DNA of 64,000 bases, taken from positions 10,808 through 74,807 of the forward strand of contig DAIUEJ010000005.1 in assembly GCA_036845225.1 (NCBI GenBank), given 5' to 3'. Both the position numbers and the translations under genes were made by a program. The stretch is from Candidatus Anoxymicrobiaceae bacterium (GTDB lineage Bacteria; Actinomycetota; Geothermincolia; Fen-727; Anoxymicrobiaceae). The notes beneath the pieces were generated by a model, which made no database searches, was not told where the DNA came from, and was given only the letters and a program-made list of their open reading frames with translations. Numbering within the stretch: position 1 is the stretch's first letter; each line of letters begins with the position of its first letter. Shown one piece after another: positions 1-62,735 of the stretch.

Positions 1-358
1 TCACCATGGACAACGTCGAGTCAGTCAAGGCCCGCATTGTGGCGGAGGCCGCCAATGCCCCCGTGACGCCTGAAGCGGAGAGAGAGTCCTTTTCGAGCGC
101 GGTACCTTCGTGATCCCTGACATCCTCTGCAACGCGGGAGGAGTCACCGTGAGCTACTTCGAATGGGTGCAGAACATCCAGTCGCTCCTGTGGAAGGAAG
201 AGGACGTCTACGAGCGCCTGTACGAGATAATGGTCACCGCTTTCTACCGGGTCCTCGAGATCGGCAAGCACCATGGCGTGAACCTGCGTCTTGCTTCGAT
301 GATCCTGGCAGTCGACCGGGTCTCAAAGGCGATCAAGGCTCGGGGCCTTTACCCCTGA
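1..358 (+). CDS. gdhA: Glu/Leu/Phe/Val (glutamate) dehydrogenase, C-terminal part; 5' end lies outside the window; apparent -1 frameshift near nt 84-90
   Basis: Frame 3 (nt 3-107) reads ...KARIVAEAANAPVTPEAERE, then runs out of frame. Frame 2 (110-358) reads IPDILCNAGGVTVSYFEWVQN..., the conserved GDH C-terminus. Inserting 1 nt after gagagag restores ERE[I/L]LFERGTFVIPDIL. Confidence 0.75.
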
Positions 359-378
359 CTAAACTTTTAGGGCGTTCG

Positions 379-477
379 ATGCACCACTGGGGTCAGGCAC
401 CGGTGGTGCATTTTTGATGTTTGACCAGGGAAACGTATTTAAATGCACCACCGGTGCCTGACCCCAGTGGTGCATCC
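379..477. repeat. REP-like element: two inverted copies of a 34-nt hairpin unit (9-bp stem atgcaccac/gtggtgcat, loop tggggtcaggcaccg) separated by a 31-nt spacer, between the convergent gdh and nadE 3' ends
   Basis: Direct reading: 379-412 gatgcaccactggggtcaggcaccggtggtgcat is the reverse complement of 444-477. The loop sequence matches the loops in the inverted repeats flanking the RAYT-like transposase at 21958-22870. Confidence 0.7.
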
Positions 478-486
478 CCGAAACGT

Positions 487-2220
487 TTAGCGGCGGCGGG
501 TTGAGATGGGCATCCGCCAGTCGCGGCCGAACGCCCGGGGAGTGATCTTGACCCCGACGGGAGCCTGCCGCCGCTTGTACTCGTTGGCGTCGACCGTCGC
601 TATCACCCGTGAGACGAGTTCGTGGCTCATGCCTCTAGCCACTATCTCCTGAGCGCCCAGCCCTTGTTCGACGTACGCCTCCAGCACGGGGTCGAGCTCC
701 TCATAGGGAGGCAGTGAGTCGGTGTCGAGCTGGTCCGCCCGGAGCTCGGCGGTAGGCGGCCGCTCGATTATGAACGCCGGGATGACTTCCTTGCCCGCGC
801 GCTCGTTGATGTACTCGGCAACCTCGTAGACCTGTGTCTTCAAGAGGTCCTTGATCAGAGCGAAGCCTCCTGCCATGTCCCCGTACAGAGTGCAGTAGCC
901 CATCGACAGCTCGCTCTTGTTGCCGGTGGCCAGCACCAGCCAGCCGAACTGGTTGGATAACGCCATCAGGAGGTTGCCCCTGATCCGTGCCTGGAGGTTC
1001 TCGTAGGCGACCCCTTCGTCTTTCTCGCCCAGCTCAGGCGCCAGGTCCTCCACATAGCTGGTGTAGACCGATCCTATCGGCAGCACTATCAACTTCACCC
1101 CGAGGTTTTGCACGAGCTCCTCCGCCGCGCTGCCGCTCTCCCCCGCCGTGTACTTGGAGGGGAGGAAAACACATACCACGTTCTCCTTACCCAGCGCCTC
1201 TACGGCGAGCGCCGCGGTCAGCGCCGAGTCGATCCCGCCGGAGAGCCCGAGCACGACCTTCTTGAACCCGTTCTTGGCGACGTATTCATCCAGGCCCAGC
1301 ACCAGCGCCTCGAATATCTCTTCGGTGAGCGACATCTCCGCGACCGGCTCCACGCGCCCTGAATCAGGCCTCGCGGCCTCGAAGGTGGACGGCTTTTCCA
1401 GGACGCAGACCTCAACCTCTGAGTGAGGGCACTCCGCCCGGCTGTAGCGGAACCGCGGCTCCAGGAGGCGATTGCTCTTGAGGGGCTCGAGGTCGACCTC
1501 GCACACCAGCAGCTCTTCTTCAAACCTCCGGGCCGTCGCGATGAACCCCTGTTGAGGATGATAGACACAGGACCCGCCGTCGAAGACCAGCTCGTCCTGG
1601 GCGCCGACCATGTTGCAGTAAGCGATCACGACCGGCCCGTCCATCGACCTCGATGCGATCAGTTTCCTGCGGTACTCGTATTTTCCGCGGTTGAACGGGG
1701 ACGCCGATAGGTTGAGGATGATCTCGGCGCCTCCGCGCGCCACCTGCTCTTCCACCGGCCCGCCGGGGAACCAGATATCCTCACAGATGGTTATTCCCAC
1801 GCGCACCCCGGAGACTTCGATCACCACGTTGCGGTTGCCGGCGCCGAAGTACCTCTTCTCATCGAAGACGCCGTAGTTAGGGAGAAAAGTCTTCCTGTAG
1901 ACGCAGCGCAACTTTCCCCGGTTGATAACGGCCGCCGAGTTGAAGACGTCGTAGTCCGCCTCGGCGTAGCCCACCACCGCGATGGTGTCACCGATGCCGC
2001 TCGCGAGCTCGTTCATCGCGGCCATGCTGCTGCGGTTGAAATCGGTCTTGAGGAGGAGGTCCTCGGGAGGATACCCGGTCAGGCAAAGCTCCGGGAAGAG
2101 CACTATGTCCGCGCCGGCGGCCTTTGCCTCCTCGACGTACTCCATTATCTTGCTCGAGTTGCCCTCGAGATCTCCGACCGCGCTCTTGACCTGAGCGAGC
2201 GCAAGAACCAGTCCTGGCAC
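487..2220 (-). CDS. nadE: Glutamine-dependent NAD+ synthetase (N-terminal CN-hydrolase/nitrilase domain plus C-terminal NAD synthase domain)
   Basis: 577 aa. N-terminus has the carbon-nitrogen hydrolase pattern (LFPELCLTGYPPEDLL) and the C-terminus the NAD synthetase P-loop region (VVLGLSGGIDSAL). Confidence 0.85.
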   Translation of the reverse strand: MPGLVLALAQVKSAVGDLEGNSSKIMEYVEEAKAAGADIVLFPELCLTGYPPEDLLLKTDFNRSSMAAMNELASGIGDTIAVVGYAEADYDVFNSAAVINRGKLRCVYRKTFLPNYGVFDEKRYFGAGNRNVVIEVSGVRVGITICEDIWFPGGPVEEQVARGGAEIILNLSASPFNRGKYEYRRKLIASRSMDGPVVIAYCNMVGAQDELVFDGGSCVYHPQQGFIATARRFEEELLVCEVDLEPLKSNRLLEPRFRYSRAECPHSEVEVCVLEKPSTFEAARPDSGRVEPVAEMSLTEEIFEALVLGLDEYVAKNGFKKVVLGLSGGIDSALTAALAVEALGKENVVCVFLPSKYTAGESGSAAEELVQNLGVKLIVLPIGSVYTSYVEDLAPELGEKDEGVAYENLQARIRGNLLMALSNQFGWLVLATGNKSELSMGYCTLYGDMAGGFALIKDLLKTQVYEVAEYINERAGKEVIPAFIIERPPTAELRADQLDTDSLPPYEELDPVLEAYVEQGLGAQEIVARGMSHELVSRVIATVDANEYKRRQAPVGVKITPRAFGRDWRMPISTRRR

Positions 2221-2281
2221 CTTTCAACCTCCCTGCCGTGCCGCTTCAAAATAGCATACCACGACACGCCGGGAGGCACGC

Positions 2282-2620
2282 TCAGATGGCCCGGTCTCCG
2301 ACCTCTCCCGTCCTTACCCGTATCGCGTCGGCTACATCGGTGACGAATATCTTGCCGTCGCCGATCGCGCCGGTTCGCGCCTTCCTGACGATGATGTCGA
2401 TCATCTTCTCCAGGTCCTCGTCCATGACGACGACCTCGACCTTCACCTTTGGTATGAACCGGATAGTGTAGGCGTTGCCCCGCCATTGCTGCTCCAGGCC
2501 CTTCTGCTTGCCGTGGCCTTTCACCGCGGTGATGGTGACGCCCGGGTAACCGATGGTCTCGAGCCCGTCGATCACTGAATCCAGCTTGTTCGTTCTAACT
2601 ATCGCCTCGACCTTTTTCAT
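2282..2620 (-). CDS. glnK: Nitrogen regulatory protein P-II (GlnK/GlnB family)
   Basis: 112 aa: MKKVEAIVR...TGEVGDGKIFV, the typical PII fold sequence, located immediately downstream of amtB. Confidence 0.9.
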   Translation of the reverse strand: MKKVEAIVRTNKLDSVIDGLETIGYPGVTITAVKGHGKQKGLEQQWRGNAYTIRFIPKVKVEVVVMDEDLEKMIDIIVRKARTGAIGDGKIFVTDVADAIRVRTGEVGDRAI

Positions 2621-2638
2621 CAGTCCTCCACTATCGGC

Positions 2639-4195
2639 TCAGGCAATGTCGTCATAAAGGTCCGTGGTCTCGTCCGTGTATGCCGGGACTCCCATCTCTG
2701 CGGAGTCGAGGCCGTTCACCTCATCCGCGGGGGCCACCCTGATGCCCTGGATCTTATCCTGCACTTTGAAGAACGCATACGCGAGCGTGCACACGAACAC
2801 GATGCACGTCGCCGCGCCGATGAGCTGCACCAGGAACTGTCCATATCCCCCGTAGAGCAGGCCTCTGACGGTCCCTGACACACCGTTCCACCCGGCACCG
2901 TAGGTGCCGTCCGCGAAGATGCCCAGCGCGATGACTCCCCATAGTCCGTTGACGCCGTGGACCGCCACCGCGCCGACGGGGTCGTCGATCTTGAAGCGCC
3001 GCTCCAGTGTGGTCACCGCGACGCACACCAGCACGCCGGCGATGGCACCTATGATCGCGGCTTCCCAGCCGGACACGAAAGCGCACGGCGCGGTGATGGC
3101 CACGAGTCCCGCGAGGCACCCGTTGGCGCTCATGGACGGGTCCGGGAACCCCGTCTTCTTCCACATATACAGCATCGCCACTACGGCACCGAAACAAGAC
3201 GCGAGCAAGGTGTTGGTGGCGACCACCGCCAGCCTGAGGTCGCCGCCGTTCAGGGTGCTGGCGGCGTTGAACCCGAACCATCCGAACACCAGGATGATGG
3301 TCCCGACGATCGCTAGGGGGATGTTGTGCCCGGGTATCGCCCGCGGCGTGCCGTCTTTCTTGAACTTCCCGATGCGCGGTCCGAGCACGAGTATTCCCAT
3401 CAGGCCCGTCAGGCCGCCCACGGCGTGCACCACCGACGACCCCGCGAAATCGACGAAGCCGTGTCCGAGGTGAGCGTGCACACCGAGCTGCGACAGCCAG
3501 CCGCCGCCCCATACCCAGTTGCCGAAGATCGGGTACAGGATAGCGCCCATGAATAACCCGTATACGCAGAACGCGGAGAACTTCCAGCGCTCGGCCATCG
3601 CCCCGGTGGGAATGGTCGCCGCCGTGTCCATGAACACTACTTCAAACAGGAAGAACAGGAAGATCCCGGTATCGTATGCCGGGCCACCCAGGGCGAAGCC
3701 CTTGAACCCGAAGAGGCCCCATCCGCCGATACCCACCTCGCGCGTCATGATCGCGGTGCCGCCGAACATCTTGAGCGCGCCTACCCCTCCGAACATGATC
3801 CCGAACCCGACGAAGTAGAAAGCCAGTACGGCGATGCCGAATATCATGAAGTTGGTCATCATGACGTGGAGCGCGTTCTTCTTCTGGCAGAAGCCCGTCT
3901 CGAGCAGCGCGAACCCGGCCTGCATGAAGAAGACCAGGATGCCGCCGAGAAACACCCAGATGAAGTTGGTGGCGATCTTGTTGTGGCCGACGTCATCGAG
4001 CACGGCGTCCACGGGGCTGGCGCCCTTGTCGGCCGGAGCAGAGACATCGGTCCTGTTGCCGGTCTTTGTTCCGTTCGGGTCACCCGCCCTCGCGATGGAA
4101 CCGAGGCAGAACAGGGCCATAATGATAAGTGCGGCCACCAGCGTCGCCCTGTATAGCTTGTGGCGCCTGTCGCGCATGGTCGTCAAATCCGTCAC
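2639..4195 (-). CDS. amtB: Ammonium transporter (Amt family), forming an amtB-glnK operon
   Basis: 518 aa polytopic membrane protein with Amt signatures (FALLETGFCQKKNALHVMM, DFAGSSVVH) and a signal/TM N-terminus. Confidence 0.9.
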   Translation of the reverse strand: MTDLTTMRDRRHKLYRATLVAALIIMALFCLGSIARAGDPNGTKTGNRTDVSAPADKGASPVDAVLDDVGHNKIATNFIWVFLGGILVFFMQAGFALLETGFCQKKNALHVMMTNFMIFGIAVLAFYFVGFGIMFGGVGALKMFGGTAIMTREVGIGGWGLFGFKGFALGGPAYDTGIFLFFLFEVVFMDTAATIPTGAMAERWKFSAFCVYGLFMGAILYPIFGNWVWGGGWLSQLGVHAHLGHGFVDFAGSSVVHAVGGLTGLMGILVLGPRIGKFKKDGTPRAIPGHNIPLAIVGTIILVFGWFGFNAASTLNGGDLRLAVVATNTLLASCFGAVVAMLYMWKKTGFPDPSMSANGCLAGLVAITAPCAFVSGWEAAIIGAIAGVLVCVAVTTLERRFKIDDPVGAVAVHGVNGLWGVIALGIFADGTYGAGWNGVSGTVRGLLYGGYGQFLVQLIGAATCIVFVCTLAYAFFKVQDKIQGIRVAPADEVNGLDSAEMGVPAYTDETTDLYDDIA

Positions 4196-4246
4196 GCCCG
4201 TCTGACCCCCGTTCGCAGACCGTGTCTCATGAACTCAGGTTAGAAG

Positions 4247-4292
4247 GGCGATGTTTCGTGACGGTTTCACGAATGTAAAATGTAGGTAACAG
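4247..4292 (-). promoter_or_regulatory. Putative nitrogen-regulator (GlnR-type) operator upstream of amtB: GTTAC-n6-TTTAC-n6-GAAAC-n6-GAAAC, followed by ATCGCC
   Basis: Minus strand reads tGTTACctacatTTTACattcgtGAAACcgtcacGAAACATCGCC. The same GAAAC-n6-GAAACATCGCC core occurs upstream of glnA (37883-37917). Confidence 0.45.
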
Positions 4293-4306
4293 CCGAATGC
4301 GCCTCC

Positions 4307-4360
4307 GAGGTCAGGCCCCCGTGGTGCATTTTGACATCAGGCTCAGGACCGGTCAGGGAA
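4307..4360. repeat. Degenerate copy of the REP-like element (ggtcaggcccccgtggtgcattttga...gaccggtcagggaa)
   Basis: Aligns with 391-435 (ggtcaggcaccggtggtgcatttttga...gaccagggaa). Confidence 0.5.
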
Positions 4361-4423
4361 GAGGCGTTCCCGGTGGGTGCTTTCGGGCGCGTTGCTTCTC
4401 TACGGCGTCTGTGACGCCCATCA

Positions 4424-5242
4424 GTGCCTTCTCGAGTGCCGCCCCGTAGCCCGCGCCGACTGCTCCATGAACAGCCCCCTGCGAGCGCCCTCAGGGCGCG
4501 TGCTACGCGATGCGGGGTCAAGGGCTCCGGGGTCCGGCTCGCACTCGGCGCCCAGCAGTCTTCCCCAGTAATACGGGGTTGTGAGCTCTACTTCCGAGGG
4601 GATGCCGCCTTCGCCTCACCGGGCGTCTACGAATACCTGGAGCAGAACCACATCCTCTACGCCACCAGACTTCCCGCAAACCAGGTACTCTCCAGGGATA
4701 TAGAGCACCTCATGACCAGGCCGGTGGGAAGACCTCCCAAGAGACCAAGGGTTTTCTACCATGACTTCTCCTACCAGGCCACCTCCTGGAGCACGCCCAG
4801 GAGGGTGATTGCGAAGGTGGAGTGGCACGCAGGTGAGCTGTTCCCGAGGGTTGGCTTTATCGTGACCAACATGACCGCGAAAGCCAAGAACGTGGTGAGG
4901 TTCTACAACAAGCGCGGCAACTGCGAGCAGTGGATAAAGGAAGGGAAACGCACCCTTACCTGGACCAGGTTATCCTGCACCAGGTTCTCCTCCAACCAGG
5001 TGAGGCTCGCGCTGTTCGTCCTGGCGTACAACATGGGAAACTTCCTCCGCCGTTTCGCCCTTCCGAGTCAGGTCTCGCACTGGTCGCTATCCAGCATCCA
5101 GCTCAAGCTCATAAAGATTGGAGCAAAGGTGATGAGCCATTCGAGGAGGACGATCTTCCAGATGGCGGAGGTCGCCGTCCCTGAGGCGCTATTCGCCGCT
5201 CTCCTGGAGCGTATACGTTGCCTGGTCGCCGCGCCGACTTGA
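4424..5242 (+). pseudogene. IS1380-family DDE transposase, N-terminally truncated remnant (C-terminal ~215 aa only)
   Basis: Motifs RVIAKVEWHAGELFPRVGFIVTNM...FYNKRGNCEQWIKEGKRTLTWTRLSCTRFSSNQVRLALFVLAYNMGNFLRR match the IS1380-family C-terminus. The N-terminal ~60 residues of the ORF are non-homologous read-through, and no N-terminal transposase half is present. Confidence 0.7.
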
Positions 5243-5358
5243 TAGGCACAGAGGTTGTTCACATGAACGCAGAGATAACGGTCAATGGTCCTCAATCGTC
5301 ATCGAAGACGGGCTCGACAGGCAGGCGGTAACTTCGAGAAAGAGAGACGAGGGCGAGA

Positions 5359-10283: not shown

Positions 10284-10334
10284 CCCCGGCCCCCCTGAGT
10301 CGAGGGTTCGAATCCCTCCAGCTCCACCACCAAA
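10284..10334 (+). repeat. Partial, inverted copy of the tRNA-Ala 3' half (acceptor/T-arm plus CCA plus 4 nt), forming a 39-bp perfect inverted repeat with the adjacent tRNA-Ala gene
   Basis: 10296-10334 gagtcgagggttcgaatccctccagctccaccaccaaat is the exact reverse complement of 10363-10400. The upstream ggggctcc mimics a tRNA 5' end, but no D-arm or anticodon arm is present. Confidence 0.55.
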
Positions 10335-10365
10335 TATGAAGGGTGGTCAGGAAGAGTGAAGGATT

Positions 10366-10443
10366 TGGTGGTGGAGCTGGAGGGATTCGAACCCTCGACT
10401 TCTACCCTGCCAAGGTAGCGCTCTCCCCCTGAGCTACAGCCCC
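10366..10443 (-). tRNA. tRNA-Ala (anticodon GGC), G3:U70 present, CCA encoded
   Basis: Minus strand reads GGGGCUGUAGCUCAGGGGGAGAGCGCUACCUUGGCAGGGUAGAAGUCGAGGGUUCGAAUCCCUCCAGCUCCACCA. Clean cloverleaf with anticodon loop UUGGCAG. Confidence 0.85.
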
Positions 10444-19805: not shown

Positions 19806-21968
19806 ATGAACTATCGCGGCCTACTTTCTCGCAGGGGCGGGCCCGGCCACGAACAGGGCTACCGTGCGAGGGGCGACATCAGCCACCTCTTGTTCGTGAC
19901 CGCGCGGCCCGGCATACAGCTCCTCTGGACCATCCTCGTGGTGGCCACCCTTGCCTATACGCTCATCAGCAGCGGCCCGAAGTATCCCGGCGTGGTGGTC
20001 CTCATGATGGCGACCTTCGCGCTGGTAATCCTCGGCAACCATTTCTTCCCGTTCGACGAATACCGGCCCGTGCTGTTCTTCTTCCTCATGGCCGCCTCTT
20101 TGGCCCTGACCTCGTCCATCGTGTTCCTGACCGGCAACCGGAACAGCCTGCTGGGCTTCCTCTTCTTCGCGGTACCGATCTTCGCATCCGCTTACTACGG
20201 CTATCCAGGCACGCTCCTGATGTCCCTCCTGACCGGGTTCGCCCGTTACATCCCGTTCATGACGGGTGGGGTCTCGGGACTGCAGCAGCTCGCGCTCGCC
20301 CTGTCCGCGGCGACCTACGTGTTCATCGGCATGATGTCCTGCTACGTGGTCGAGGGCGAGAAGATGTACGCGAGGGAGTCGAACGAGTACCGGCACCTGC
20401 TGGAGCTCTCGCGTCACAAGGAGCGCGATGTATCGCGCATCTACAACCTGAGCAGGCGGTTCTCGTATACGCTCGACCTCGACACGATCCTGAAGACGAC
20501 GGCCGCCCTCGCCCGGCAGATGCTCGCCTCCGAAAGCGCGCTGGTGTTCCTCATGGAGGGTGGCAGGCCTGTCCTCAAGGCCGCGCTCGGGCTCCTGCCG
20601 TTCACTGACATGGCCTCCGTTTCGGTCCCCGTTGAGAGCGCCTGGTTCCAGCGGCTGGCCGCCGGCGACGCTGTCATCGAGGAGAAGGCCACCCTCGGCT
20701 GGCTGCCTCTCACCCCCGAATCCGCGGGCAAGAAGCACAACATCGCCGCGGTCCCGCTTTTCACGGGCGGGGACGTGACCGGCTACCTCCTATGCCTCTC
20801 GCCGGCCGCGAGGTCTTTCAGGGAGTCAAACCTGGAGATCCTTTCGACGATCGCGAGCCAGGCTGCGGTGGCGGTCGAGAAAGCACAGCTCTACGCCGAG
20901 ACCCTCGATGACAAGACCAAGGTCGAGACTATCCTGAGCGCCTTGCGGGACGGCCTCCTGCTGACCGACACCCGGGGCAGGCTGGTCGAGGCCAACCCGG
21001 TCGCGGCGAGGATGCTAGGACTCGAGACGGATCCTGACGGCACCCGCCTGCAGGAGGTGCTCGCCACGGTCGTCGAGGATTGCGACCTCGGCCACCTCAC
21101 CCTGAACGAGGCGGTCGAGGCCGCGCTGGATGGGCGCACCGTCTTCGGTGAGATGGTCCTCTCGGGCGAGACCCACATGACCGTGCAGGCCCACTTCATC
21201 CCGCTCCGCGACCAGCTCTCCAACGTCTCGGGCGTTGTACTGGTCCTGCATGACATCACCGAGCTCAAAAGGGTCGACGAGATGAAGTCCAATTTCGTCA
21301 CCAACGTCTCGCACGAGCTGCGCACGACTCTCACCAGCATCTCGGGTTTCGTGAGCCTGCTTCTCGCCGGACGTGCGGGGGCGCTGTCTGCCAACCAGGA
21401 GAAGTACCTCGACGTGGTGAAGCAGCAGGCTTCGAACCTCACCAGGATGATCGAGGACCTCCTTGACCTCTCCAGGCTGCAGGCGAGCCGCAGCAGGGCA
21501 GGCGCGCAGCGCTCCGAGCTCGTCGACCTCGCCGAACTAGCGGCCAGGCAGTTGGCCGAAGCGGCGAACGACGGCTCGATCGATGTCCGGCTCAACATCA
21601 GCGAAGACCTCCCGCCGGTGGACGCCGACCCGGCCCGCCTTTCGCAGGTCCTCATCAACATCATGGAGAACGCGATCAAGTTCACCCCGCCTGGCGGGCT
21701 GGTGGAAGTGGGGGCCATGCTCAACGGTTCATTCGTCCAGGTGAAGGTGTCTGACACCGGCGCGGGCATCTCGCATTCGGCGCTGCCCCACATCTTTGAC
21801 AGGTTCTTCCAGGCGCACGGCGGCGACTCCGCGGACCAGGGGGGCTTCGGGCTGGGGCTCGCGATATCGCGTGAGATCATCGAGCTTCACGGCGGCAGGA
21901 TCTGGTGCGAGAGCGACCCGGGGCGTGGCTCGACTTTCTACTTCACAGTCCCCATCTATGCAAAATAG
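19806..21968 (+). CDS. Sensor histidine kinase: multi-TM N-terminal domain, GAF, PAS, HisKA, HATPase_c
   Basis: 720 aa; H-box DEMKSNFVTNVSHELRTTL and ATPase N/G boxes (NIMENAIKFT; DTGAGIS; GGFGLGLAISREI). Confidence 0.85.
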   Translation: MNYRGLLSRRGGPGHEQGYRARGDISHLLFVTARPGIQLLWTILVVATLAYTLISSGPKYPGVVVLMMATFALVILGNHFFPFDEYRPVLFFFLMAASLALTSSIVFLTGNRNSLLGFLFFAVPIFASAYYGYPGTLLMSLLTGFARYIPFMTGGVSGLQQLALALSAATYVFIGMMSCYVVEGEKMYARESNEYRHLLELSRHKERDVSRIYNLSRRFSYTLDLDTILKTTAALARQMLASESALVFLMEGGRPVLKAALGLLPFTDMASVSVPVESAWFQRLAAGDAVIEEKATLGWLPLTPESAGKKHNIAAVPLFTGGDVTGYLLCLSPAARSFRESNLEILSTIASQAAVAVEKAQLYAETLDDKTKVETILSALRDGLLLTDTRGRLVEANPVAARMLGLETDPDGTRLQEVLATVVEDCDLGHLTLNEAVEAALDGRTVFGEMVLSGETHMTVQAHFIPLRDQLSNVSGVVLVLHDITELKRVDEMKSNFVTNVSHELRTTLTSISGFVSLLLAGRAGALSANQEKYLDVVKQQASNLTRMIEDLLDLSRLQASRSRAGAQRSELVDLAELAARQLAEAANDGSIDVRLNISEDLPPVDADPARLSQVLINIMENAIKFTPPGGLVEVGAMLNGSFVQVKVSDTGAGISHSALPHIFDRFFQAHGGDSADQGGFGLGLAISREIIELHGGRIWCESDPGRGSTFYFTVPIYAK

Positions 21969-22870
21969 GGACAGGCACCGTTTTGCATCAGCAACATATT
22001 TCTTGCACCCTACTTGATATGCTTGTACTGCTAGGGCATAATATTGTTCAAATGCGCCAGCCACGACTGCAAGCCTCGGACGCCCTGCATCATGTCTTCA
22101 CACGAGGCAACAATAAGCAAACCATCTTCCGTGAGGCAGGTGACAAGGTGTACTTCTTGAACCTCCTGTCCTCAGTTATCTCAAGATACGCTTGGATTTG
22201 TCACTCATACTGCCTCATGGACAACCATTATCACCTTCTCCTTGAGACACCGAGTGGCTTCCTTTCTGAAGGAATGCACGTCATCAACGGCGCCTACACC
22301 ACAAAGTTCAACAGCAAGTACGGGTGTTCAGGGCATGTACTGCAAGGGCGCTATCACTCGCCGCTGGTGGAGCAGGAATCTCACTTCCTTGAACTACTGA
22401 GATACATCGCCTTGAACCCTGTGAAGGATGGATTTGTCCTGCATCCAGAAGACTGGCGATGGAGCTGTTATAGAGCGCTTGCCGGGATAGAACCTTTACC
22501 TGCCTTCCTTTCCACCCAGCGTGCCCACGGGGTTTTCGACCAGGACACAACCAACGCCAGACGACTTTATTCCGATTTTGTCCTTGAGCGGCTTCCGGAA
22601 GCACTGGAGCGGGCAAGGGGAAGGCCTTCACTCTCGATGATCTTCGAGTGCTGCCAAGACACTGACCGGAGTGCAGCTGCCATCGTTACAGCTTATGCCA
22701 AACACCGATACAGCATGACCGAGATTGCCCGGTACCTCAGAATCAGTTGCGCAACAGTCAGCAGGGTCATTTCAAAAGCGGATCAAGCAGACCTTGATTG
22801 GGAATTCAGGATTTAGGAGATCCCGCTTCATGTTAACAATGCAAAATGGTGCCTGTCCCTATTTTGCAGG
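21958..22870 (+). mobile_element. ~0.9 kb low-GC insertion carrying a RAYT/IS200-like Y1 transposase gene bounded by ~36-39 bp imperfect inverted repeats, each containing a hairpin (tgcaaaa-[tagggacaggcaccg]-ttttgca)
   Basis: Left 21960-21996 gcaaaatagggacaggcaccgttttgcatcagcaaca; right 22830-22868 atgttaacaatgcaaaatggtgcctgtccctattttgca (reverse complement). The inverted repeats abut the stop codons of the two convergent host genes (histidine kinase and HD-GYP). AT content is higher than in flanking DNA. Confidence 0.7.
22052..22816 (+). CDS. REP-associated/IS200-like Y1 (HUH) tyrosine transposase with C-terminal DnaA-C-like HTH
   Basis: ALHHVFTRGNNKQTIF...YCLMDNHYHLLLE (HuH motif)...RYIALNPVKDGFV (Tyr region)...MTEIARYLRISCATVSRVISK (HTH). 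The ATG at 22052 is chosen; the ORF upstream of it is junk. Confidence 0.7.
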   Translation: MRQPRLQASDALHHVFTRGNNKQTIFREAGDKVYFLNLLSSVISRYAWICHSYCLMDNHYHLLLETPSGFLSEGMHVINGAYTTKFNSKYGCSGHVLQGRYHSPLVEQESHFLELLRYIALNPVKDGFVLHPEDWRWSCYRALAGIEPLPAFLSTQRAHGVFDQDTTNARRLYSDFVLERLPEALERARGRPSLSMIFECCQDTDRSAAAIVTAYAKHRYSMTEIARYLRISCATVSRVISKADQADLDWEFRI

Positions 22871-34893: not shown

Positions 34894-36398
34894 TCACCCT
34901 TCCCCTTGAAGGTGTCCTTCAAGAGCTCCGCCAGCTCGTCGGAGCCCGGCTCCGCCACCGGCCCCAGGCCGAGTTTCGCCCTGGCCCTTTCGCGCGCCTT
35001 CCCGAGCACGCCCGCATTCTGGAACATCTCGATCCCCTGCCTCGTCTCCGCCGGGCCGAGCCCGCGCTCGAGCGCCATGCGCTTCGCTTCCTTCATCACC
35101 TTGACCATGCCGAAGCTGTTCGGGCACAGCTCGGTGCAGGTGCCGCACTCGAGGCACTTCCAGATGTCCTCACCCGTTATTACGCTCTCGGCCTCGCCGG
35201 CGAGAATGCTCCGGATCACGTCGTGCGGGGCGTAGCTCTCATCCACCTGCGTGACAGGGCAGTCGTTCGAGCAGGACTCGCACTCGACGCAGCGCGCCAT
35301 GGACGCGTAGTCGAACTCCAGTGGGACCAGCTCGCGTATGCGCTTGACCTCACGCCACTTGTCGAAGAACGGCTGCACGTCGATCCTGTGCATGTCGAGG
35401 CCCAGCTCAGCGGGCTCGAACCCCAGGGCGAGCGCCGCCAGTTCGGAGTAGTAGAAGACCGGTATGTTCAAGGTCTCGTGGTGCTTCTTTATCACCATCT
35501 GCTGCGTCTCGAACTGCCCGAAGCACGCCGGGCAGACCACTACGATGGCGTCGGCCCCGAGTTGCTCGAGCTCGAACAGCTTCAAGCGGGCGCTGGCCAT
35601 CGACTCCTCCGGGCTGCCGGAGCGCCCGAGCGCCTCCCCGCAGCACATGAGCTTGGAGTGGTAATCGAGGCTCTCGAGCCCGAGACACTCGGCGAGCCTG
35701 TCGAGCTTGACGGGCCTCGCCGCGTCGTCGAGCCTCACGGTCGGGCCCGGCCTCAGCAACTGGCAGCCGTTGTGCACTCCGACCGTCAGGCCGTCCATCG
35801 GCGCCACGACCTTCCGCGCGATGACGTCAGGCCCTATTTTGTCGTGGAGCACCTCGATCACGTGGTATACGGAGGTGCGGAAGTTGTACTCCAGGCCGAC
35901 TTCCGCGAGACGTTCGGCGACCTCGTTGCGAAGCTCGCTCGAGGCGTGAAAAGCCGCTATCGCCGATCGGAAAGTCGCATAGCACCCGTTGCAGGCCACG
36001 AGCAGGTCCTTGCCTTCCCTCTCGGCGAGCGCCAGGTTGCGCGCGGCGGTCAGGTACCACGCCTTCTCGGAGAGGGTCTCGACCAGGAACTTTTCCGGGC
36101 AGCACGTGAAGCCCTCGATCTCGGAGTACCTCACGCTCAGCCTCTCGAGTAGGAGGCGGAGAGACTTCTCGAGGAATGGATACCTGCCGGGGATGGTGCA
36201 CCCCCAGAAGAACACGTAATCGTCCACTTTCGCCCGTTTCCTTACTCTGCCAGTCGACTTTTCGCATTTTAGCACAGACACCAAACGGGCATACGGGCCC
36301 GTACCTTTACGAAAGCGCATCGGGGACTGCCCGCGCAATGATATCCGTCGAGCTCCATAGCGCCGGCGTCCCCCCGGCATGACACCCGCTCCCCACAA
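34890..36398 (-). CDS. HdrB-like (2x CCG domain) / HdrC-like (2x[4Fe-4S]) fused Fe-S oxidoreductase; start codon uncertain
   Basis: CCG motifs (FTCCPE, LMCCGE; CNGC, CPAC) and C-terminal ferredoxin clusters (CVECESCSNDCP; CLECGTCTELCP). Overlaps the gltB1 start by 4 nt. The N-terminal ~40 aa of the ORF are Arg-rich and may not be real. Confidence 0.65.
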   Translation of the reverse strand: MWGAGVMPGGRRRYGARRISLRGQSPMRFRKGTGPYARLVSVLKCEKSTGRVRKRAKVDDYVFFWGCTIPGRYPFLEKSLRLLLERLSVRYSEIEGFTCCPEKFLVETLSEKAWYLTAARNLALAEREGKDLLVACNGCYATFRSAIAAFHASSELRNEVAERLAEVGLEYNFRTSVYHVIEVLHDKIGPDVIARKVVAPMDGLTVGVHNGCQLLRPGPTVRLDDAARPVKLDRLAECLGLESLDYHSKLMCCGEALGRSGSPEESMASARLKLFELEQLGADAIVVVCPACFGQFETQQMVIKKHHETLNIPVFYYSELAALALGFEPAELGLDMHRIDVQPFFDKWREVKRIRELVPLEFDYASMARCVECESCSNDCPVTQVDESYAPHDVIRSILAGEAESVITGEDIWKCLECGTCTELCPNSFGMVKVMKEAKRMALERGLGPAETRQGIEMFQNAGVLGKARERARAKLGLGPVAEPGSDELAELLKDTFKGKGE

Positions 36399-36414
36399 AT
36401 GCCTGCCCGACTTG

Positions 36415-36438
36415 AGAAAAAGGACCTGACCCCGAAAA
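36415..36438. repeat. REP-like unit (gaaaaaggacctgaccccgaaaag) between the hdrBC-like start and glnA terminator
   Basis: Inverted 18/18 match to 61798-61815. Confidence 0.5.
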
Positions 36439-36446
36439 GTTGAGTC

Positions 36447-36487
36447 GTCAAAGGAAAGCGCCCCGCCCTTGGTCGGACGGGGCGCGA
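36447..36487 (-). terminator. Intrinsic terminator downstream of glnA
   Basis: Minus strand: GC-rich hairpin gcgccccg...cggggcgc followed by CUUUCCUUU. Confidence 0.5.
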
Positions 36488-36501: not shown

Positions 36502-37839
36502 CTACAGGATCGGCAGGTAGTTATTCAGCTCGTACTCGGTCACCACAGCTCTGTACTTCTCCCACTCGACCTTCTTGTCGGTGATGAGCGAATGGAAGAC
36601 GTGCTCGCCCAGGGACTCCTTCAGCAGCTCGCTGTTCTCGGCGAGCTTGATGGCCTCCCAGAGGTCTTCGGGGAGGCTCTTGATGCCCAGGGACTCGCGC
36701 TCCTCTTCCGGCATCTCGTAGATGTTTCGCTCGATCGGGGCCTCCAGGTCCAGGTCGTCCTCGATCCCTTTCAGGCCGGCGGCCAGCATGACCGAGAAGG
36801 CGAGGTACGGGTTGCATGCCGGGTCGGGCGAGCGGAGCTCGATCCGGGTCGAGTTCTCCTTGCCGGGCTTGTAGGTCGGCACCCTGATGAGGTCGGACCG
36901 GTTGCGCTGCGCCCAGGAAAGGTATACCGGCGCCTCGTAGCCGGGCACCAGCCGCTTGTAGGAGTTCACGAACTGGTTCGTGACCAGGCAGAACTCCTGG
37001 GCGTACTTGAGCAGCCCCGCGATGAAGGCCTTGGCCTCATGTGTGAGGTAGTACTGGTCTTTCGGGTCGAAGAACGCGTTCCTGTCACCTTTGAACAGGG
37101 ACATATGCGTGTGCATCCCGCTTCCGTTCTCATCGGACAGGGGCTTGGGCATGAACGTCGCGTGGACGCCCTGCTTGATCGCAACTTCTTTGACGACGAG
37201 CCTGTAGGTCATGGCATTGTCGGCCATCTGGAGCGCGTCAGTGTAGCGCAGGTCGATCTCGTGCTGGCTCGGCCCGACCTCGTGGTGCGAGTACTCGACG
37301 CCGATGCCCATCTCCTCGAGGGTGAGGACGGTCTCGCGCCTGAGGTCGCTCGCCACGTCAAGCGGAGTGAGGTCGAAATAGCCGCCCCGGTCCAGTGTCA
37401 CCGGCGGGGGCTCGGAGTCCGCGAAGTAGTAGTACTCGAGCTCCGGTCCGACGTAGAAGGTGTATCCGAGCTCCTGCGCCTTCTTCAGGTTGCGCCGCAG
37501 CACGAAGCGCGGGTCGCCCTGGTGGGGGCTCCTGTCAGGCTCGAGGATGTCGCAGAACATCCTCGCAACCGCGCTGTGGCCGCTAGGGCGCCAGGGCAGC
37601 AGGGCGAACGTCGACGGGTCAGGCTGGGCGATCATGTCGCTCTCGTCGATCCTGGCGAAGCCCTGGATGCTCGAGCCGTCGAAGCCCATGCCGTTTTCCA
37701 GTGCCTCCTCGAGCTCTTCCCTGGTTATGGCGAAGCTCTTCAGGAAGCCGAGGATGTCCGTGAACCACAGCCGTATGAACTTCACGTCGTGCTCGCGCAC
37801 CGCTTCCAGAACGTAGTCGTTGTCCGGGCCTGATACCAT
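36502..37839 (-). CDS. glnA: Glutamine synthetase type I
   Basis: 445 aa; GS beta-grasp and catalytic domains (FDGSSI; KPLSDENGSGMHTHMSLF). Confidence 0.9.
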   Translation of the reverse strand: MVSGPDNDYVLEAVREHDVKFIRLWFTDILGFLKSFAITREELEEALENGMGFDGSSIQGFARIDESDMIAQPDPSTFALLPWRPSGHSAVARMFCDILEPDRSPHQGDPRFVLRRNLKKAQELGYTFYVGPELEYYYFADSEPPPVTLDRGGYFDLTPLDVASDLRRETVLTLEEMGIGVEYSHHEVGPSQHEIDLRYTDALQMADNAMTYRLVVKEVAIKQGVHATFMPKPLSDENGSGMHTHMSLFKGDRNAFFDPKDQYYLTHEAKAFIAGLLKYAQEFCLVTNQFVNSYKRLVPGYEAPVYLSWAQRNRSDLIRVPTYKPGKENSTRIELRSPDPACNPYLAFSVMLAAGLKGIEDDLDLEAPIERNIYEMPEEERESLGIKSLPEDLWEAIKLAENSELLKESLGEHVFHSLITDKKVEWEKYRAVVTEYELNNYLPIL

Positions 37840-61770: not shown

Positions 61771-61794
61771 GTCGGCCTCCTTGACTTAACACTA

Positions 61795-61856
61795 GGGGTC
61801 AGGTCCTTTTTCTTAAGTCCCGGGACTAAACTTTTTGGGGTCAGGCCCCTTTTTGT
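61795..61856. repeat. Cluster of REP-like units upstream of the GRE gene: ggggtcaggtcc-ttttt / palindrome agtcccgggact / ggggtcaggcccc-ttttt
   Basis: Shares an 18-nt identity (gaaaaaggacctgacccc, inverted) with 36415-36438 and the GGGGTCAGG core with the elements at 379-477 and 4307-4360. Confidence 0.55.
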
Positions 61857-61930
61857 TTAGTCGCAGGGATAATCATAGTACGGTTGGGCGCGAGGTGATA
61901 ATGACGGATGACGTATTCCCGTCGAGCGCC

Positions 61931-62602
61931 TTATTGAGCCCGGCCGACCGGACAGGCCACGGCGCACATCGCGCAGGCGTGCTTGCGGCCGAGGACAGGG
62001 ATGTGTGAGCGCCTCCACCGGTCACACTCGAACGCATCGATAAGCTCGTCGCGGCCGCAGCCGGGGCTCCAGGTGCCACTTTTCAGCGCCCCGGAAGGGC
62101 AGGCATCCACGCACAGGCGGCACCTGCCGCAGCGAGAACCGGTGACAGGCTTGCCGGCCGTCATTCGCTCGGCGGCGAGCACCGTCGCCATCTCGAGGCG
62201 CGGACCGAACGCGGGCGAGACCAGCATGCCGTTCCTCCCGACCCATCCCAGCCCGGCGAGCGTGGCGGCAGTCTTCTGCTGGAATCACGCCGATAGCGAG
62301 CACTCGTCCTGGCCCGAGATGCGCACGTTCGGGATGCCCAGGCTGTCCAGTAACGAGCATAACTCCGTGACTGCGCCCTTCAGCCCGCGGTCGGCTTCGA
62401 GTTCCGCGGAGTGGTACGACTCCTCGTCGTAGGACTCGAGCGTCGGGGCCTCCGCTCCCGGGAACAACGGGGAGACCAGCACCAGCGCCGAGCCGTAGCC
62501 CCAGGGCCCTGACTCGCCGAGTACGGACAGGTCCGCGACGCCCCAGGCCGCCAGGCCCAGGCCGTCGAGCAACGTCTTTATGGCTTCGTAGTTCTTGCTC
62601 AT
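61931..62602 (-). pseudogene. QueG-like epoxyqueuosine reductase-family Fe-S protein (short), interrupted by an in-frame TGA at 62285-62287
   Basis: Upstream ORF ends ...QDECSLSA-TGA, then the same frame continues FQQKTAATLAGLGWVGRNGMLV... (QueG AGLGWIGK motif), followed by CGRCRLCVDACP and CAMCAVACP clusters. (62686-62227)=459 is a multiple of 3. Confidence 0.5.
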
Positions 62603-62735
62603 CGTCCCATCATGATACCGGCGATTTCGTCCCATTGCACCGTTTGCGGTCGATGCCGACGGCCTCCTCCTGAACGACCGCGTCATCCCGGCGTTTGTTA
62701 TAGACTCTAACCGTGGCTGAAGGCGGAGCGGGAGG

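Follow-up and report, generated by a model that had tools for sequence, protein, structure and literature searches.

Short dispersed intergenic repeats with a TIRYT-type core motif in an uncultured actinomycetote

Canonical REP/REPIN-RAYT systems are reported from E. coli and Pseudomonas, as described by Nunvar in 2010, Bertels and Rainey in 2011 and Ton-Hoang in 2012. Canonical REPs are expected to be stable imperfect palindromes whose basal stem of 7-20 nt is fully paired, to be repeated as inverted doublets (REPINs) and to number tens to hundreds in a genome, for the most part between genes. A further criterion for a canonical REP is a GT[AG]G tetranucleotide located 0-2 nt 5' of the hairpin foot (PMC6006769). 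The TIRs flanking TIRYT genes share instead the motif GGGGWSAS, and some are scattered as families whose members stand singly, as dimers or in clusters (PMC3733652); examples of such 'TIRtrons' are ORFs 1152 and 4509 of Stenotrophomonas maltophilia K279a and ORF 1552 of Koribacter versatilis (Di Nocera et al. 2013, BMC Genomics 14:522). TnpA_Y1 subclass 2.1, with its HTH C-terminus, probably corresponds to TIRYT (PMC6006769), and the genes of this subclass were reported without adjacent REP-like sequences (Quentin, Siguier, Chandler & Fichant 2018, BMC Genomics 19:475). For Proteobacteria, there are good descriptions of REP-type repeats and their domesticated transposases; the TIRYT/subclass 2.1 branch is represented by only two descriptive papers, and no biochemical study of any TIRYT was found in the literature searched.

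We have analysed a 64-kb stretch of DNA from an uncultured member of the Actinomycetota, probably close to Ca. Anoxymicrobiaceae/Geothermincolia (hereafter, the window), in which a preliminary description had pointed out identical 18-nt cores at two distant intergenic sites. This observation was borne out: the 18-mer GAAAAAGGACCTGACCCC occurs as exact matches at 36416-36433 on the plus strand and 61795-61812 on the minus strand, the two sites having been correctly located and only their positions (36415-36432 and 61798-61815) being 1-3 nt off. A third copy, AAAAAGGGGCCTGACCCC, with three mismatches, was found at 61837-61854 on the minus strand. Three matches stand against a chance expectation of 0.04 in the window, and this number was reached in 0 of 100 dinucleotide shuffles. 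The identity could be extended to 25 nt (36409-36433 versus 61795-61819, 96%), and every copy of the 18-mer was seen to be the core of a B-type unit of approximately 38 nt with the structure GACTNAAC-T-rich-GGGGTCAGGYCC(C)-TTTTT-TTNAGTC. The three B units are as follows:

36409-36446, minus strand: B unit of site 1, GACTCAAC TTTTC GGGGTCAGGTCC TTTTTC TCAAGTC (46.4 bits, E 1e-12, with the model of 14 B units)
61783-61821, plus strand: B unit 2a of site 2, GACTTAAC ACTA GGGGTCAGGTCC TTTTTC TTAAGTC, containing the second exact 18-mer (39.1 bits)
61824-61862, plus strand: B unit 2b of site 2, of another subtype, GACTAAAC TTTTT GGGGTCAGGCCCC TTTTTG TTTAGTC (41.2 bits)

The pattern of the whole unit, GACTNAA-N5-6-GGGGTCAGGYCC-N0-1-TTTT, matched the window only at these three places (0.00 expected), and a sequence model built from 14 B units revealed no further diverged full-length copy there. 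Among the 14 aligned units the mean column identity was 85%, with an invariant GGGTCAGG core; GGGGTCAG, which fits GGGGWSAS exactly in both B and A units, was present in 13 of them and replaced by AGGGTCAG in the remaining one. The core GGGGTCAGG(T/C)CC carries the GGGGWSAS signature of TIRYT-flanking inverted repeats. Two other hairpin types of the window, A and C, have the apical core of the B unit at their top; B units have only this core of approximately 12 nt and the T-run in common with them, and are devoid of the TGCRTTTT segment shared by A and C. In total, the window contains three full B units, one split B unit, three A hairpins and two C hairpins, mostly in intergenic positions.

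A very large number of unrelated genomes contain the loose pattern GGGGTCAGGYCC(N)TTTTT, in many cases as terminator-like hairpins of the form A5-GGGG-TCAGG-CCCC-T5, and one may ask whether the likeness between the units is due to chance, or whether they are generic mini-hairpins, rich in G and followed by T-runs, of the sort recurring in any GC-rich genome. However, the similarity over 25-38 nt takes in parts lying outside any hairpin, and the shuffles, the full-unit pattern and the 14-unit alignment effectively refute this explanation, which we consider extremely improbable.

The preliminary description placed both sites immediately upstream of start codons of minus-strand genes. This is correct for the GRE gene at site 2 (GTG 61770, 12 nt off), whereas the start of the hdrBC-like gene adjoins site 1 only if the longest ORF is taken (TTG 36398). 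In identical or related contigs, gene callers set the hdrBC-like start 122, 218 or 277 nt past the stop of glnA. Four of the seven further contigs in the alignment have ACG in place of the ATG at 36380. The B unit itself is situated 56 nt downstream of the glnA stop. Between them, at 12 nt from the unit, lies the terminator hairpin of glnA (36458-36485), a strong one with an 11-bp stem containing 10 GC pairs. The unit is kept in seven other contigs with identical GlnA, in four of which its foot is a perfect TTGAGTC, as compared to TCAAGTC in the window. The unit of site 1 is therefore better described as downstream of glnA than as upstream of the hdrBC-like start.

At site 2, the left foot of unit 2a adjoins the Shine-Dalgarno sequence AAGGAGG of the GRE gene (61776-61782), whose GTG start is backed by many homologues of 990 aa. 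Units 2a and 2b follow one another in direct orientation, and the compound arrangement with a T-run after each, as reported earlier, was confirmed; the 'central palindrome' AGTCCCGGGACT is, however, no element of its own, being composed of the right foot of 2a (..AAGTC), CCGG and the left foot of 2b (GACT..). In a species with 81% identical GRE, the spacer between the Fer4 gene and the GRE gene is free of units; in a lineage with 84% identical GRE DNA it has one, adjoining the Shine-Dalgarno sequence, and in the window it has two, of different subtypes. Both would come to lie inside the GRE 5' leader, in which two hairpins are predicted (z -2.5), given a sigma-70-like promoter match at 61901-61872 on the minus strand, with a predicted transcript start near 61865.

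The units could be host regulatory RNA or DNA elements (weak terminators, mRNA-stabilising hairpins or translational modulators), kept for their function and not spread by a transposase. The predicted GRE leader, with its two hairpins and with the units beside the Shine-Dalgarno sequence, would agree with that, as would the persistence of site 1 in 8/8 contigs encoding identical GlnA, its placement downstream of glnA in T-run orientation, and the match of unit 2b to a terminator-like pattern, GGGGTCAGGCCCC plus TTTTTGTTTA. The orientation of units with respect to neighbouring genes is, on the other hand, inconsistent: the T-run strand of site 2 runs antisense to GRE, without a co-oriented gene ending there. 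At site 1, a strong genuine terminator already precedes the unit. Furthermore, the orthologous GRE leader is free of units in a related species and has a single one in another lineage, and the same weakly folding unit occurs beside unrelated genes. We thus hold a regulatory origin to be unlikely, and note that exaptation of units after their insertion is possible and compatible with the dispersed-repeat explanation that we prefer. The specific case of intrinsic terminators was dismissed in view of where the units lie, how they are oriented and how weakly they fold: the hairpin-plus-T pattern is fitted by 2b alone, upstream of which no gene ends on the plus strand, and site 1 itself was not called terminator-like.

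Scanning of metagenomes with the unit pattern detected 12 stretches in related contigs, corresponding to eight distinct sites, two of them orthologous to window sites and six in unrelated flanks of contigs with 57-66% GC. The B units at these eight sites and the GRE sites are either solitary, arranged in tandem or grouped with A and C hairpins. A scan of genome contigs with the pattern GGGGTCAGGYCCN{0,1}TTTTT was too loose, giving at least 118 stretches across many phyla; among the matches listed are repeat families from two MAGs, one of Pseudomonadales and one of Planctomycetota, that contain the core, and three RAYT homologues next to which it lies. The repeat family of the window thus exists, is dispersed to non-homologous sites and differs in copy number between related lineages. 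The initial suggestion of a short dispersed extragenic repeat is upheld, and the mobility proposed with it is backed, as a past event, by the non-homologous sites, the series of 0, 1 and 2 units in the GRE spacer and the presence of a Y1 gene in the window. We also checked whether the 18-mer is part of a longer conserved gene or known RNA, and it is not: no Rfam model matched the units at gathering thresholds over the window, and at E <= 1 nothing meaningful was detected around both sites. The Rfam matches of the window are to the FMN riboswitch and tRNA only. The stretch GGUCAGGUCC resembles what we take to be a conserved part of SRP RNA; no SRP RNA model matched, and the likeness was regarded as coincidence.

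Unit 2b, folded as single-stranded DNA (-8.1 kcal/mol, z -4.2), was the only one of the three clearly better than its shuffles, while the two units with the exact 18-mer, 2a and site 1, folded no better than shuffled sequences (z +0.4 and +0.8, respectively). The pairing of the feet is broken in 3-4 of 13 B units, and at foot position 5, where these mismatches lie, the pairs T:A, A:T and C:G were seen; such covariation, with three pair types at one position and several units mismatched or chimeric, is weak evidence for a selected structure. Taken together, the folding of two of the three window units and the broken feet mean that a hairpin substrate is not assured. No GT[AG]G was found at the foot of the hairpins, the feet being GACTNAA in B, ATGCACC in A and TGCAAAA or ACGCAAA in C. 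Because of the missing foot tag and the poor folding of two of the three units, B units are not canonical REPs; the match is to the TIRYT or 'TIRtron' type of repeat with GGGGWSAS.

Near the beginning of the window, B and A sequences are combined in one composite element, with a solitary A hairpin further along:

357-492, plus strand: composite element, B feet GACTAAACTTTTAGGG ... CCCCGAAACGTTTAGC around an A-type inverted doublet (-57.8 kcal/mol, z -14.9)
378-413, plus strand: A hairpin, left copy of the doublet, GATGCACCAC TGGGGTCAGGCACCG GTGGTGCATTT (-13.3 kcal/mol, z -6.1)
441-476, minus strand: A hairpin, right, inverted copy of the doublet, 36 nt, 100% complementary to 378-413
4297-4331, plus strand: solitary diverged A hairpin, ATGCGCCTCC GAGGTCAGGCCCC CGTGGTGCATTT

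The left half of the composite element (357-372) is matched by the 14-unit B model. In a related contig, L128, with flanks 97-99% identical to those of the window, a plain B unit, GACTAAACTTTTAGGGGTCAGGCCCCTTTTTGTTTAGC, occupies the place of the composite element, so that the window has an A doublet (113 nt) where L128 has the apex, of 15 nt, of a B unit. An attempt to read this difference as a clean insertion, with junctions that can be defined, failed: the TTTTT on the right-hand side is changed as well (GAAAC), and the difference is a replacement. The L128 orthologue of the solitary A hairpin carries GGGGTCAGGCCCC. A nested B+ A+ A- B- palindrome was found in another contig, L135, and at several loci B units lie directly beside A- or C-type hairpins.

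The C-type hairpins of the window flank a transposase gene:

21959-21987, plus strand: C hairpin, left inverted repeat, TGCAAAA TAGGGACAGGCACCG TTTTGCA
22052-22816, plus strand: Y1/HUH transposase gene, IS200-like, of RAYT/TIRYT type with a C-terminal HTH (Y1_Tnp PF01797, 34.7 bits, cutoff 23)
22840-22868, minus strand: C hairpin, right inverted repeat, TGCAAAATAGGGACAGGCACCATTTTGCA on the minus strand

The gene has a GC content of approximately 50-55%, versus approximately 63-68% in its flanks, and an alternative start at 22019, which is used in a 96% identical homologue (P0001). Its product (254/265 aa) scored 68.3 bits with NCBIfam REP_Tyr_transpos, under the cutoff of 80, and source records name its homologues 'REP element-mobilizing transposase RayT'. 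A phmmer search of PDB with the protein returned no match; a profile search gave a weak one to 4ER8 (E. coli TnpA_REP, E 0.006). In an alignment of the window transposase with 23 homologues (24 sequences), H59-Y60-H61 and Y118 do not vary, and this speaks for a retained nuclease/ligase activity. HTH domains were detected in the alignment members as HTH_23 (19/24), HTH_38 (14/24) and HTH_28 (7/24), the window protein itself having a weak HTH_38 match at residues 217-242 (19.5 bits, below cutoff). We provisionally assign it to subclass 2.1 by domain architecture, rather than by the HMMs or tree of the study that defined this subclass.

The inverted flanks of the gene extend to 39-nt arms (21959-21997 and 22830-22868) that are 87% complementary, and an upstream histidine-kinase gene takes its last codons and its stop from the left hairpin. 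The C-type flank motif (GGGACAGGCACC, GGGACAGG or AGGGACAG) agrees with GGGGWSAS at 7/8 positions, one base off. Inverted C-type flanks are also present in a syntenic strain and, likewise, around a 69% identical paralogue or orthologue at a different chromosomal locus, and C units without a transposase form inverted doublets in three contigs (L130, L135 and L136). B units were not found as flanks of a TIRYT gene: the TIRYT loci examined in this lineage were all C-flanked, in a survey of loci other than those of the close, 65-72% identical paralogues on contigs of approximately 1 kb (P0002, P0003, P0005 and P0006). Motifs of the GGGG[T/C]CA[G/A] type lie beside the gene both in homologues picked by protein alone (L144, L145 and L148) and in those of three loci from the motif scan (L098, L108 and L020, from Acidobacteriota, Gammaproteobacteria and a Deltaproteobacteria MAG); an exact or one-off GGGGWSAS is found beside the homologues in these six loci and in L140. 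The motif of the B units is also that of TIRYT gene flanks in several phyla, and in the window enzyme the catalytic residues are intact.

Another possible explanation is that the units are double-stranded operators for a DNA-binding protein, possibly the HTH domain of the TIRYT-like protein, which would have been domesticated as a regulator or as a factor organising the nucleoid, with sites that arose through duplication or selection and not transposition. The conserved part of the units is, indeed, a sequence motif (GGGGTCAGGYCC plus T-run) and not a stable hairpin, the associated protein family has a C-terminal HTH, and the gene is found at syntenic positions across homologues of 45-69% identity, as would be expected of a domesticated gene. 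However, whole 38-nt units, including the feet needless for a 12-nt site, have been copied to unrelated loci at high identity, and they cluster and nest with hairpin doublets as REP/REPIN-type elements do. The invariant HuH and Tyr residues and the absence of a common functional theme among neighbouring genes also speak against operators, and we deem them very unlikely.

We consider it likely that the B units are a TIRYT-associated, REP-like, non-autonomous dispersed repeat, probably mobilised in trans by a TIRYT, which may be that of the window or a paralogous one. Most likely, such a TIRYT would recognise the motif and the surrounding structure on DNA that is presumably single-stranded, and would then cut and rejoin it, short units being copied or moved in trans into intergenic DNA. 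New units would often land right beside or inside existing ones, giving rise to clusters. Any regulatory consequence for neighbouring genes would be a by-product, conceivable examples being a GRE mRNA with a hairpin-rich 5' leader and a weak additional stop after the terminator of glnA.

A more specific, and doubtful, version is that GGGGTCAGG(Y)C is a cross-phylum TIRYT recognition or nicking site exposed at the top of hairpins whose stems are free to vary, with the weakly folding B units serving as landing pads for new doublets, inserted into their apex or next to it, and the family targeting itself into nested clusters. Such a site could be likened to the loop nick site of the Rep/relaxase type, and contrasts with the foot-tag logic of GTAG REPs; the replacement between the window and L128 and the nested palindrome of L135 fit with landing pads. 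If this were true, the uncharacterised TnpA_Y1 subclass 2.1 would gain a defined substrate and a target rule. The window is a compact natural example of a TIRYT in an uncultured lineage of Actinomycetota, in which the gene of the enzyme is accompanied by flanking hairpins, two more subtypes with the same apex and between-strain variants, and its units could guide the design of oligonucleotides for a first TIRYT binding and cleavage assay. For annotation, the repeats account for identical short words between genes and for probable breaks in assemblies, and caution against reading such words as gene-specific regulatory sites.

Compared with known systems, the window protein has the catalytic fold family of IS200/IS605 (PF01797), with an expected chemistry of single-strand cleavage and ligation guided by subterminal structures. 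In contrast to IS200/IS605, there is no tnpB, the gene is apparently fixed at syntenic positions and not multi-copy, and it is the short flanking units that multiply, not the gene. With REP/REPIN-RAYT systems the window shares short extragenic palindromic units, often after gene ends, inverted doublets (A and C types) and an apparently single, stably located transposase gene between inverted units. Unlike REP/REPIN, the apex of the units is conserved and not the stem, and B units are weak hairpins; they are solitary at site 1 and in direct tandem at site 2, as opposed to the inverted doublets of REPINs, the only inverted arrangement of them being the outer layer of the composite in L135. The protein resembles TnpA_Y1 subclass 2.1 in its IS200-like HuH/Y1 core and C-terminal HTH (related to HTH_23/HTH_28/Bac_DnaA_C), and its family in the wide, patchy distribution, whereas its flanks, unlike those reported for the subclass, are self-complementary hairpins with dispersed relatives. 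Finally, as in TIRtrons, a RAYT-like Y1/HUH gene lies between inverted GGGGWSAS repeats with scattered copies and no GTAG tag. The differences from the TIRtrons described are that the B type was not seen flanking any transposase gene, that the lineage, uncultured Actinomycetota, is new, that three unit types have one apical core, the motif topping a hairpin with variable stems in A and C, and that natural presence/absence variants are documented here.

The 18-nt core GAAAAAGGACCTGACCCC, which a preliminary description had reported as repeated at two distant sites, is a real repeat: two exact copies are present in the window, at 36416-36433 (+) and 61795-61812 (-), and a version with three mismatches lies at 61837-61854 (-). 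The sites had thus been correctly located, with positions 1–3 nt out. Chance, for which 0.04 matches would be expected, is a less likely explanation, and none of 100 dinucleotide-preserving shuffles reached three matches. Likeness between the exact copies runs on to 25 nt at 96% (repeat-finder pair I12), and the 18-mer is held within a unit of approximately 38 nt (B-type), composed of GACTNAAC, 4–5 T-rich bases, GGGGTCAGG(T/C)CC(C), TTTTT(C/G) and TTNAGTC, the outer 7 nt on each side (the feet) being mutually complementary. Three such units were read from the sequence:

36409-36446, minus strand: B-type unit of site 1, beside glnA
61783-61821, plus strand: B-type unit 2a of site 2, before the gene for a glycyl radical enzyme (GRE)
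61824-61862, plus strand: B-type unit 2b of site 2

Matches to the whole-unit pattern in the window are confined to these three (expectation 0.00); a sequence model built from 14 B units recovered from the window the same three and a left half at 357-372, but no other full-length copy. The 'central palindrome' AGTCCCGGGACT previously proposed for site 2 consists of the right foot of 2a, CCGG and the left foot of 2b, and nothing more.

The repeat finder and a motif scan revealed that two other hairpin types of the window carry the B-unit core as well, the A-type (ATGCACCAC-TGGGGTCAGGCACCG-GTGGTGCAT) and the C-type (TGCAAAA-TAGGGACAGGCACCG-TTTTGCA):

378-413 and 441-476: perfect inverted pair of A-type hairpins
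4297-4331: diverged single copy of the A-type hairpin
21959-21987: left C-type hairpin
22840-22868: right C-type hairpin, inverted

The 64-kb window, itself an unbiased sample, contains three full B units and one split, three A hairpins and two C hairpins. Most of them are intergenic; the left C hairpin enters the upstream histidine-kinase gene, providing its last codons and the TAG stop at 21966-21968 (…TAT GCA AAA TAG). Several B units in the related contigs L127 and L128 open right at a TGA (cTGACTAAAC). Among related contigs, A- or C-type hairpins often directly follow B units, L135 holds a nested palindrome of the form B(+) A(+) spacer A(-) B(-), and C-type inverted doublets approximately 61 nt apart occur without a transposase in L130, L135 and L136.

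Folding was computed as single-stranded DNA and expressed as z against shuffles. Values of -13.3 kcal/mol (z -6.1) were obtained for the A-type hairpin, -57.8 kcal/mol (z -14.9) for a composite at 357-492 and -8.1 kcal/mol (z -4.2) for unit 2b, while 2a and the site-1 unit, both with the exact 18-mer, did not fold above shuffles (z +0.4 and +0.8). Foot position 5 is occupied by T:A, A:T or C:G pairs across units, and 3–4 of 13 units, which look like subtype chimeras, are mismatched there. Because of these weak folds and mismatched feet, it appears to be sequence, more than a stable fold, that defines the B unit. Neither site 1 nor site 2 matched any Rfam family.

Site 1 is flanked by glnA (36502-37839, -), itself neighboured by an OmpR-type regulator, and by an HdrB/HdrC-like gene, the first in a split glutamate-synthase-type cluster; the unit begins 12 nt past a strong glnA terminator (36458-36485; 11 bp including 10 GC, then a T-rich tail). 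At site 2, unit 2a (from 61783) directly adjoins the Shine-Dalgarno sequence of the GRE gene (AAGGAGG, 61776-61782). The earlier placement of the units before start codons is firm for this gene, which starts at GTG 61770 and encodes 990 aa, the length of most of its closest homologues too, but uncertain for the Hdr-like gene: the longest ORF runs from TTG 36398, the callers of other contigs place the start 122, 218 or 277 nt beyond the stop codon of glnA, and an ATG at 36380 reads ACG in 4 of 7 other aligned contigs. If the sigma-70-like match at 61901-61872 (-), a consensus match only, is a promoter, both site-2 units would lie within the GRE mRNA leader. The GRE homologues include one, 82% identical, named Candidatus Anoxymicrobiaceae (Actinomycetota, Ca. 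Geothermincolia), and others (70–77%) named Actinomycetota; together with the OmpR-type regulator beside glnA, they place the source of the window probably within or close to that group.

Several other features of the region deserve mention. The glnA/Hdr-like spacer contains a small palindrome without Rfam match (about 36262-36275, minus strand GTACGGGCCCGTAT) that reads GTATGGACCCATAT in L003, L004 and L007; this compensatory change between strains, from a C:G to a T:A pair, may indicate that the glutamate-synthase-type operon has a conserved hairpin in its leader. Upstream of GRE, a Fer4_16 (QueG/reductive-dehalogenase-like) gene is represented by two ORFs in the window, 61931-62227 (-) and 62285-62686 (-), and by one 225-aa gene at the same position in L154-L160; the split may stem from a frameshift or a misassembly, or the gene may be a pseudogene. 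All four independent assemblies from a related species with GRE (L150-L153) stop 222–475 nt upstream of it, inside or just past the Fer4 gene, L150 in a long G-run, which may reflect an assembly break at repeat or low-complexity sequence. An FMN riboswitch (RF00050, 28690-28806, -, 110.6 bits) precedes a riboflavin-biosynthesis cluster, whose genes seen in L001 and L139 encode RibD, a lumazine-binding protein and DHBP synthase/GTP cyclohydrolase II. The 3' end of tRNA-Ala(GGC) (10369-10443, -) has a perfect 38-nt inverted copy (10298-10335, +, against 10363-10400), situated 27 nt from the gene and comprising T-arm, acceptor stem, CCA and a few bases past it. A duplicated tRNA 3' end is usually the sign of a mobile element having integrated there, but the copies then normally form a direct repeat, unlike the inverted pair here.

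The site-1 unit is kept in all seven other contigs with an identical GlnA that extend past glnA, and in four of them the foot is TTGAGTC, fully complementary, instead of the TCAAGTC of the window. A unit-pattern scan of JGI metagenome contigs returned 12 stretches representing eight distinct sites, two orthologous to those of the window and six with unrelated flanks (contigs of 57–66% GC); the 14 B units aligned show a mean column identity of 85%. L128 is 97–99% identical to window positions 1-5279 and carries a plain B unit, GACTAAACTTTTAGGGGTCAGGCCCCTTTTTGTTTAGC, at the exact place where, at 357-492, the window has B-type feet around a 113-nt A-type doublet, a difference best regarded as a recent structural polymorphism. 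A clean insertion of the doublet is ruled out, since the right-hand TTTTT reads GAAAC in the window. The GRE leader holds no unit in a species with an 81% identical GRE and the same upstream Fer4 gene, one, adjoining the Shine-Dalgarno sequence, in a lineage with a GRE gene 84% identical in DNA, and two in the window. Unit 2b differs from 2a in a foot base pair (A:T versus T:A) and in its core (GGCCCC versus GGTCC) and matches a subtype found at other loci (L127, L128), so that a second, independent arrival would fit better than tandem duplication. The B repeats are a dispersed family whose copy number differs between close relatives; that they are a host regulatory element is less likely, and the host may have come to use them secondarily, after insertion. 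Any consequence for GRE or glutamate-synthase expression is putative.

The C-type pair encloses a stretch of approximately 50–55% GC within a region of approximately 63–68% GC, and a single ORF (22052-22816), 13.6 kb from site 1. Its product matched Pfam Y1_Tnp ('Transposase IS200 like') with 34.7 bits (cutoff 23) and the NCBIfam 'REP-associated tyrosine transposase' with 68.3 bits, under the model cutoff of 80. Of 487 relatives at E <= 1e-10, several are source-named 'REP element-mobilizing transposase RayT'. In an alignment of the window protein with 23 homologues, the HuH triad H59-Y60-H61 and Y118 (RYxxLNP helix) are invariant, and HTH_23, HTH_38 and HTH_28 were detected in 19, 14 and 7 of the 24 sequences, respectively; that the B units are an operator for this HTH domain is less likely. 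The nearest solved structure, E. coli TnpA_REP (4ER8), is a weak match by profile only. The gene is apparently intact. A 96% identical homologue in syntenic position has the same C-type flanks, and a 69% identical one at another locus, between a FlpD-like gene and an acsE-type pterin-binding gene, also has inverted C-type hairpins on both sides, whose stem differs (ACGCAAA...TTTGCGT). That second locus is also occupied by 56% and 45% identical homologues. All of the 45–69% homologues (L140-L143, L145-L147 and the contig of protein P0008) are located between an FDH/FlpD-type cluster and acsE/MTHFR/CdhD Wood-Ljungdahl genes, a stable position suggesting very long vertical inheritance in this group.

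The best-supported reading is a REP-like dispersed repeat associated with TIRYTs, a RAYT-like class of Y1/HUH transposases: as judged by sequence, the B family has the signature motif common to TIRYT gene flanks, and the ORF at 22052-22816 is an apparently intact TIRYT gene. On the model of IS200/IS605 TnpA and E. coli TnpA_REP, a TIRYT would mobilise B units in trans, acting on single-stranded DNA. The main weakness of this reading is that all TIRYT genes examined in this lineage have C-type flanks and none B-type, the part common to B and to A and C being only a core of approximately 12 nt and the T-run.

TIRYTs were so named, and their arrangements termed TIRtrons, for RAYT-like genes with terminal inverted repeats (TIRs) as flanks instead of GTAG REPs; GGGGWSAS is common to many of these TIRs, and some TIRs make up moderately abundant families dispersed as single copies, dimers and clusters (Di Nocera et al. 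2013, PMC3733652). Twenty of 26 TIRYTs were assigned to TnpA_Y1 subclass 2.1, whose defining feature is an HTH at the C-terminus akin to Bac_DnaA_C, HTH_23 or HTH_28, and beside whose genes canonical GT[AG]G REPs were not found (Quentin et al. 2018, PMC6006769). A full-text literature search found no additional TIRYT work. For this enzyme subclass, the locus supplies natural variants to work from. The heart of the 18-mer, GGGGTCAG, fits GGGGWSAS exactly, and the flanks of the window transposase, AGGGACAG, are one base off. Next to homologues chosen by protein, the motif reads GGGGCCAGGCCCC in L144 (an Actinomycetota MAG), GGGGTCAAACCAC in L145 and GGGGTCAGGTCTTG in L148. Among the matches listed from a loose core scan of genomes (at least 118 loci), three loci hold a transposase homologue and the motif flanks the gene in all three: GGGAAAAAGGGGTCAGGCCCCTTTTTCCC in Luteitalea, GGGGTCAGGTCTTG and its inverse in Aquimonas, and the motif in a Deltaproteobacteria MAG. 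The published motif is thus reproduced and somewhat extended, with a GGGG(T/C)CAGG(T/C)C core recurring across phyla. Multi-copy families on the same core were also seen in two unrelated genomes, each with its own: GAAAAAGGGGTCAGGTCCATTTTT, arrayed both in tandem and inverted, in the Pseudomonadales MAG OY762456.1 (L022, L037, L056, L070, L074, L076), and a palindrome of approximately 90 nt, CCACCCGAGTACAT-GGGGTCAGGCCC-TTTTT-CTCCGGGTG, in the Planctomycetota MAG Dive96_bin1.63 (L021, L058, L078, L080, L120, L121). The initial term 'REP-like' was right in spirit; however, the B repeat is not a canonical GTAG REP, but belongs to the known TIRYT/TIR-repeat kind.
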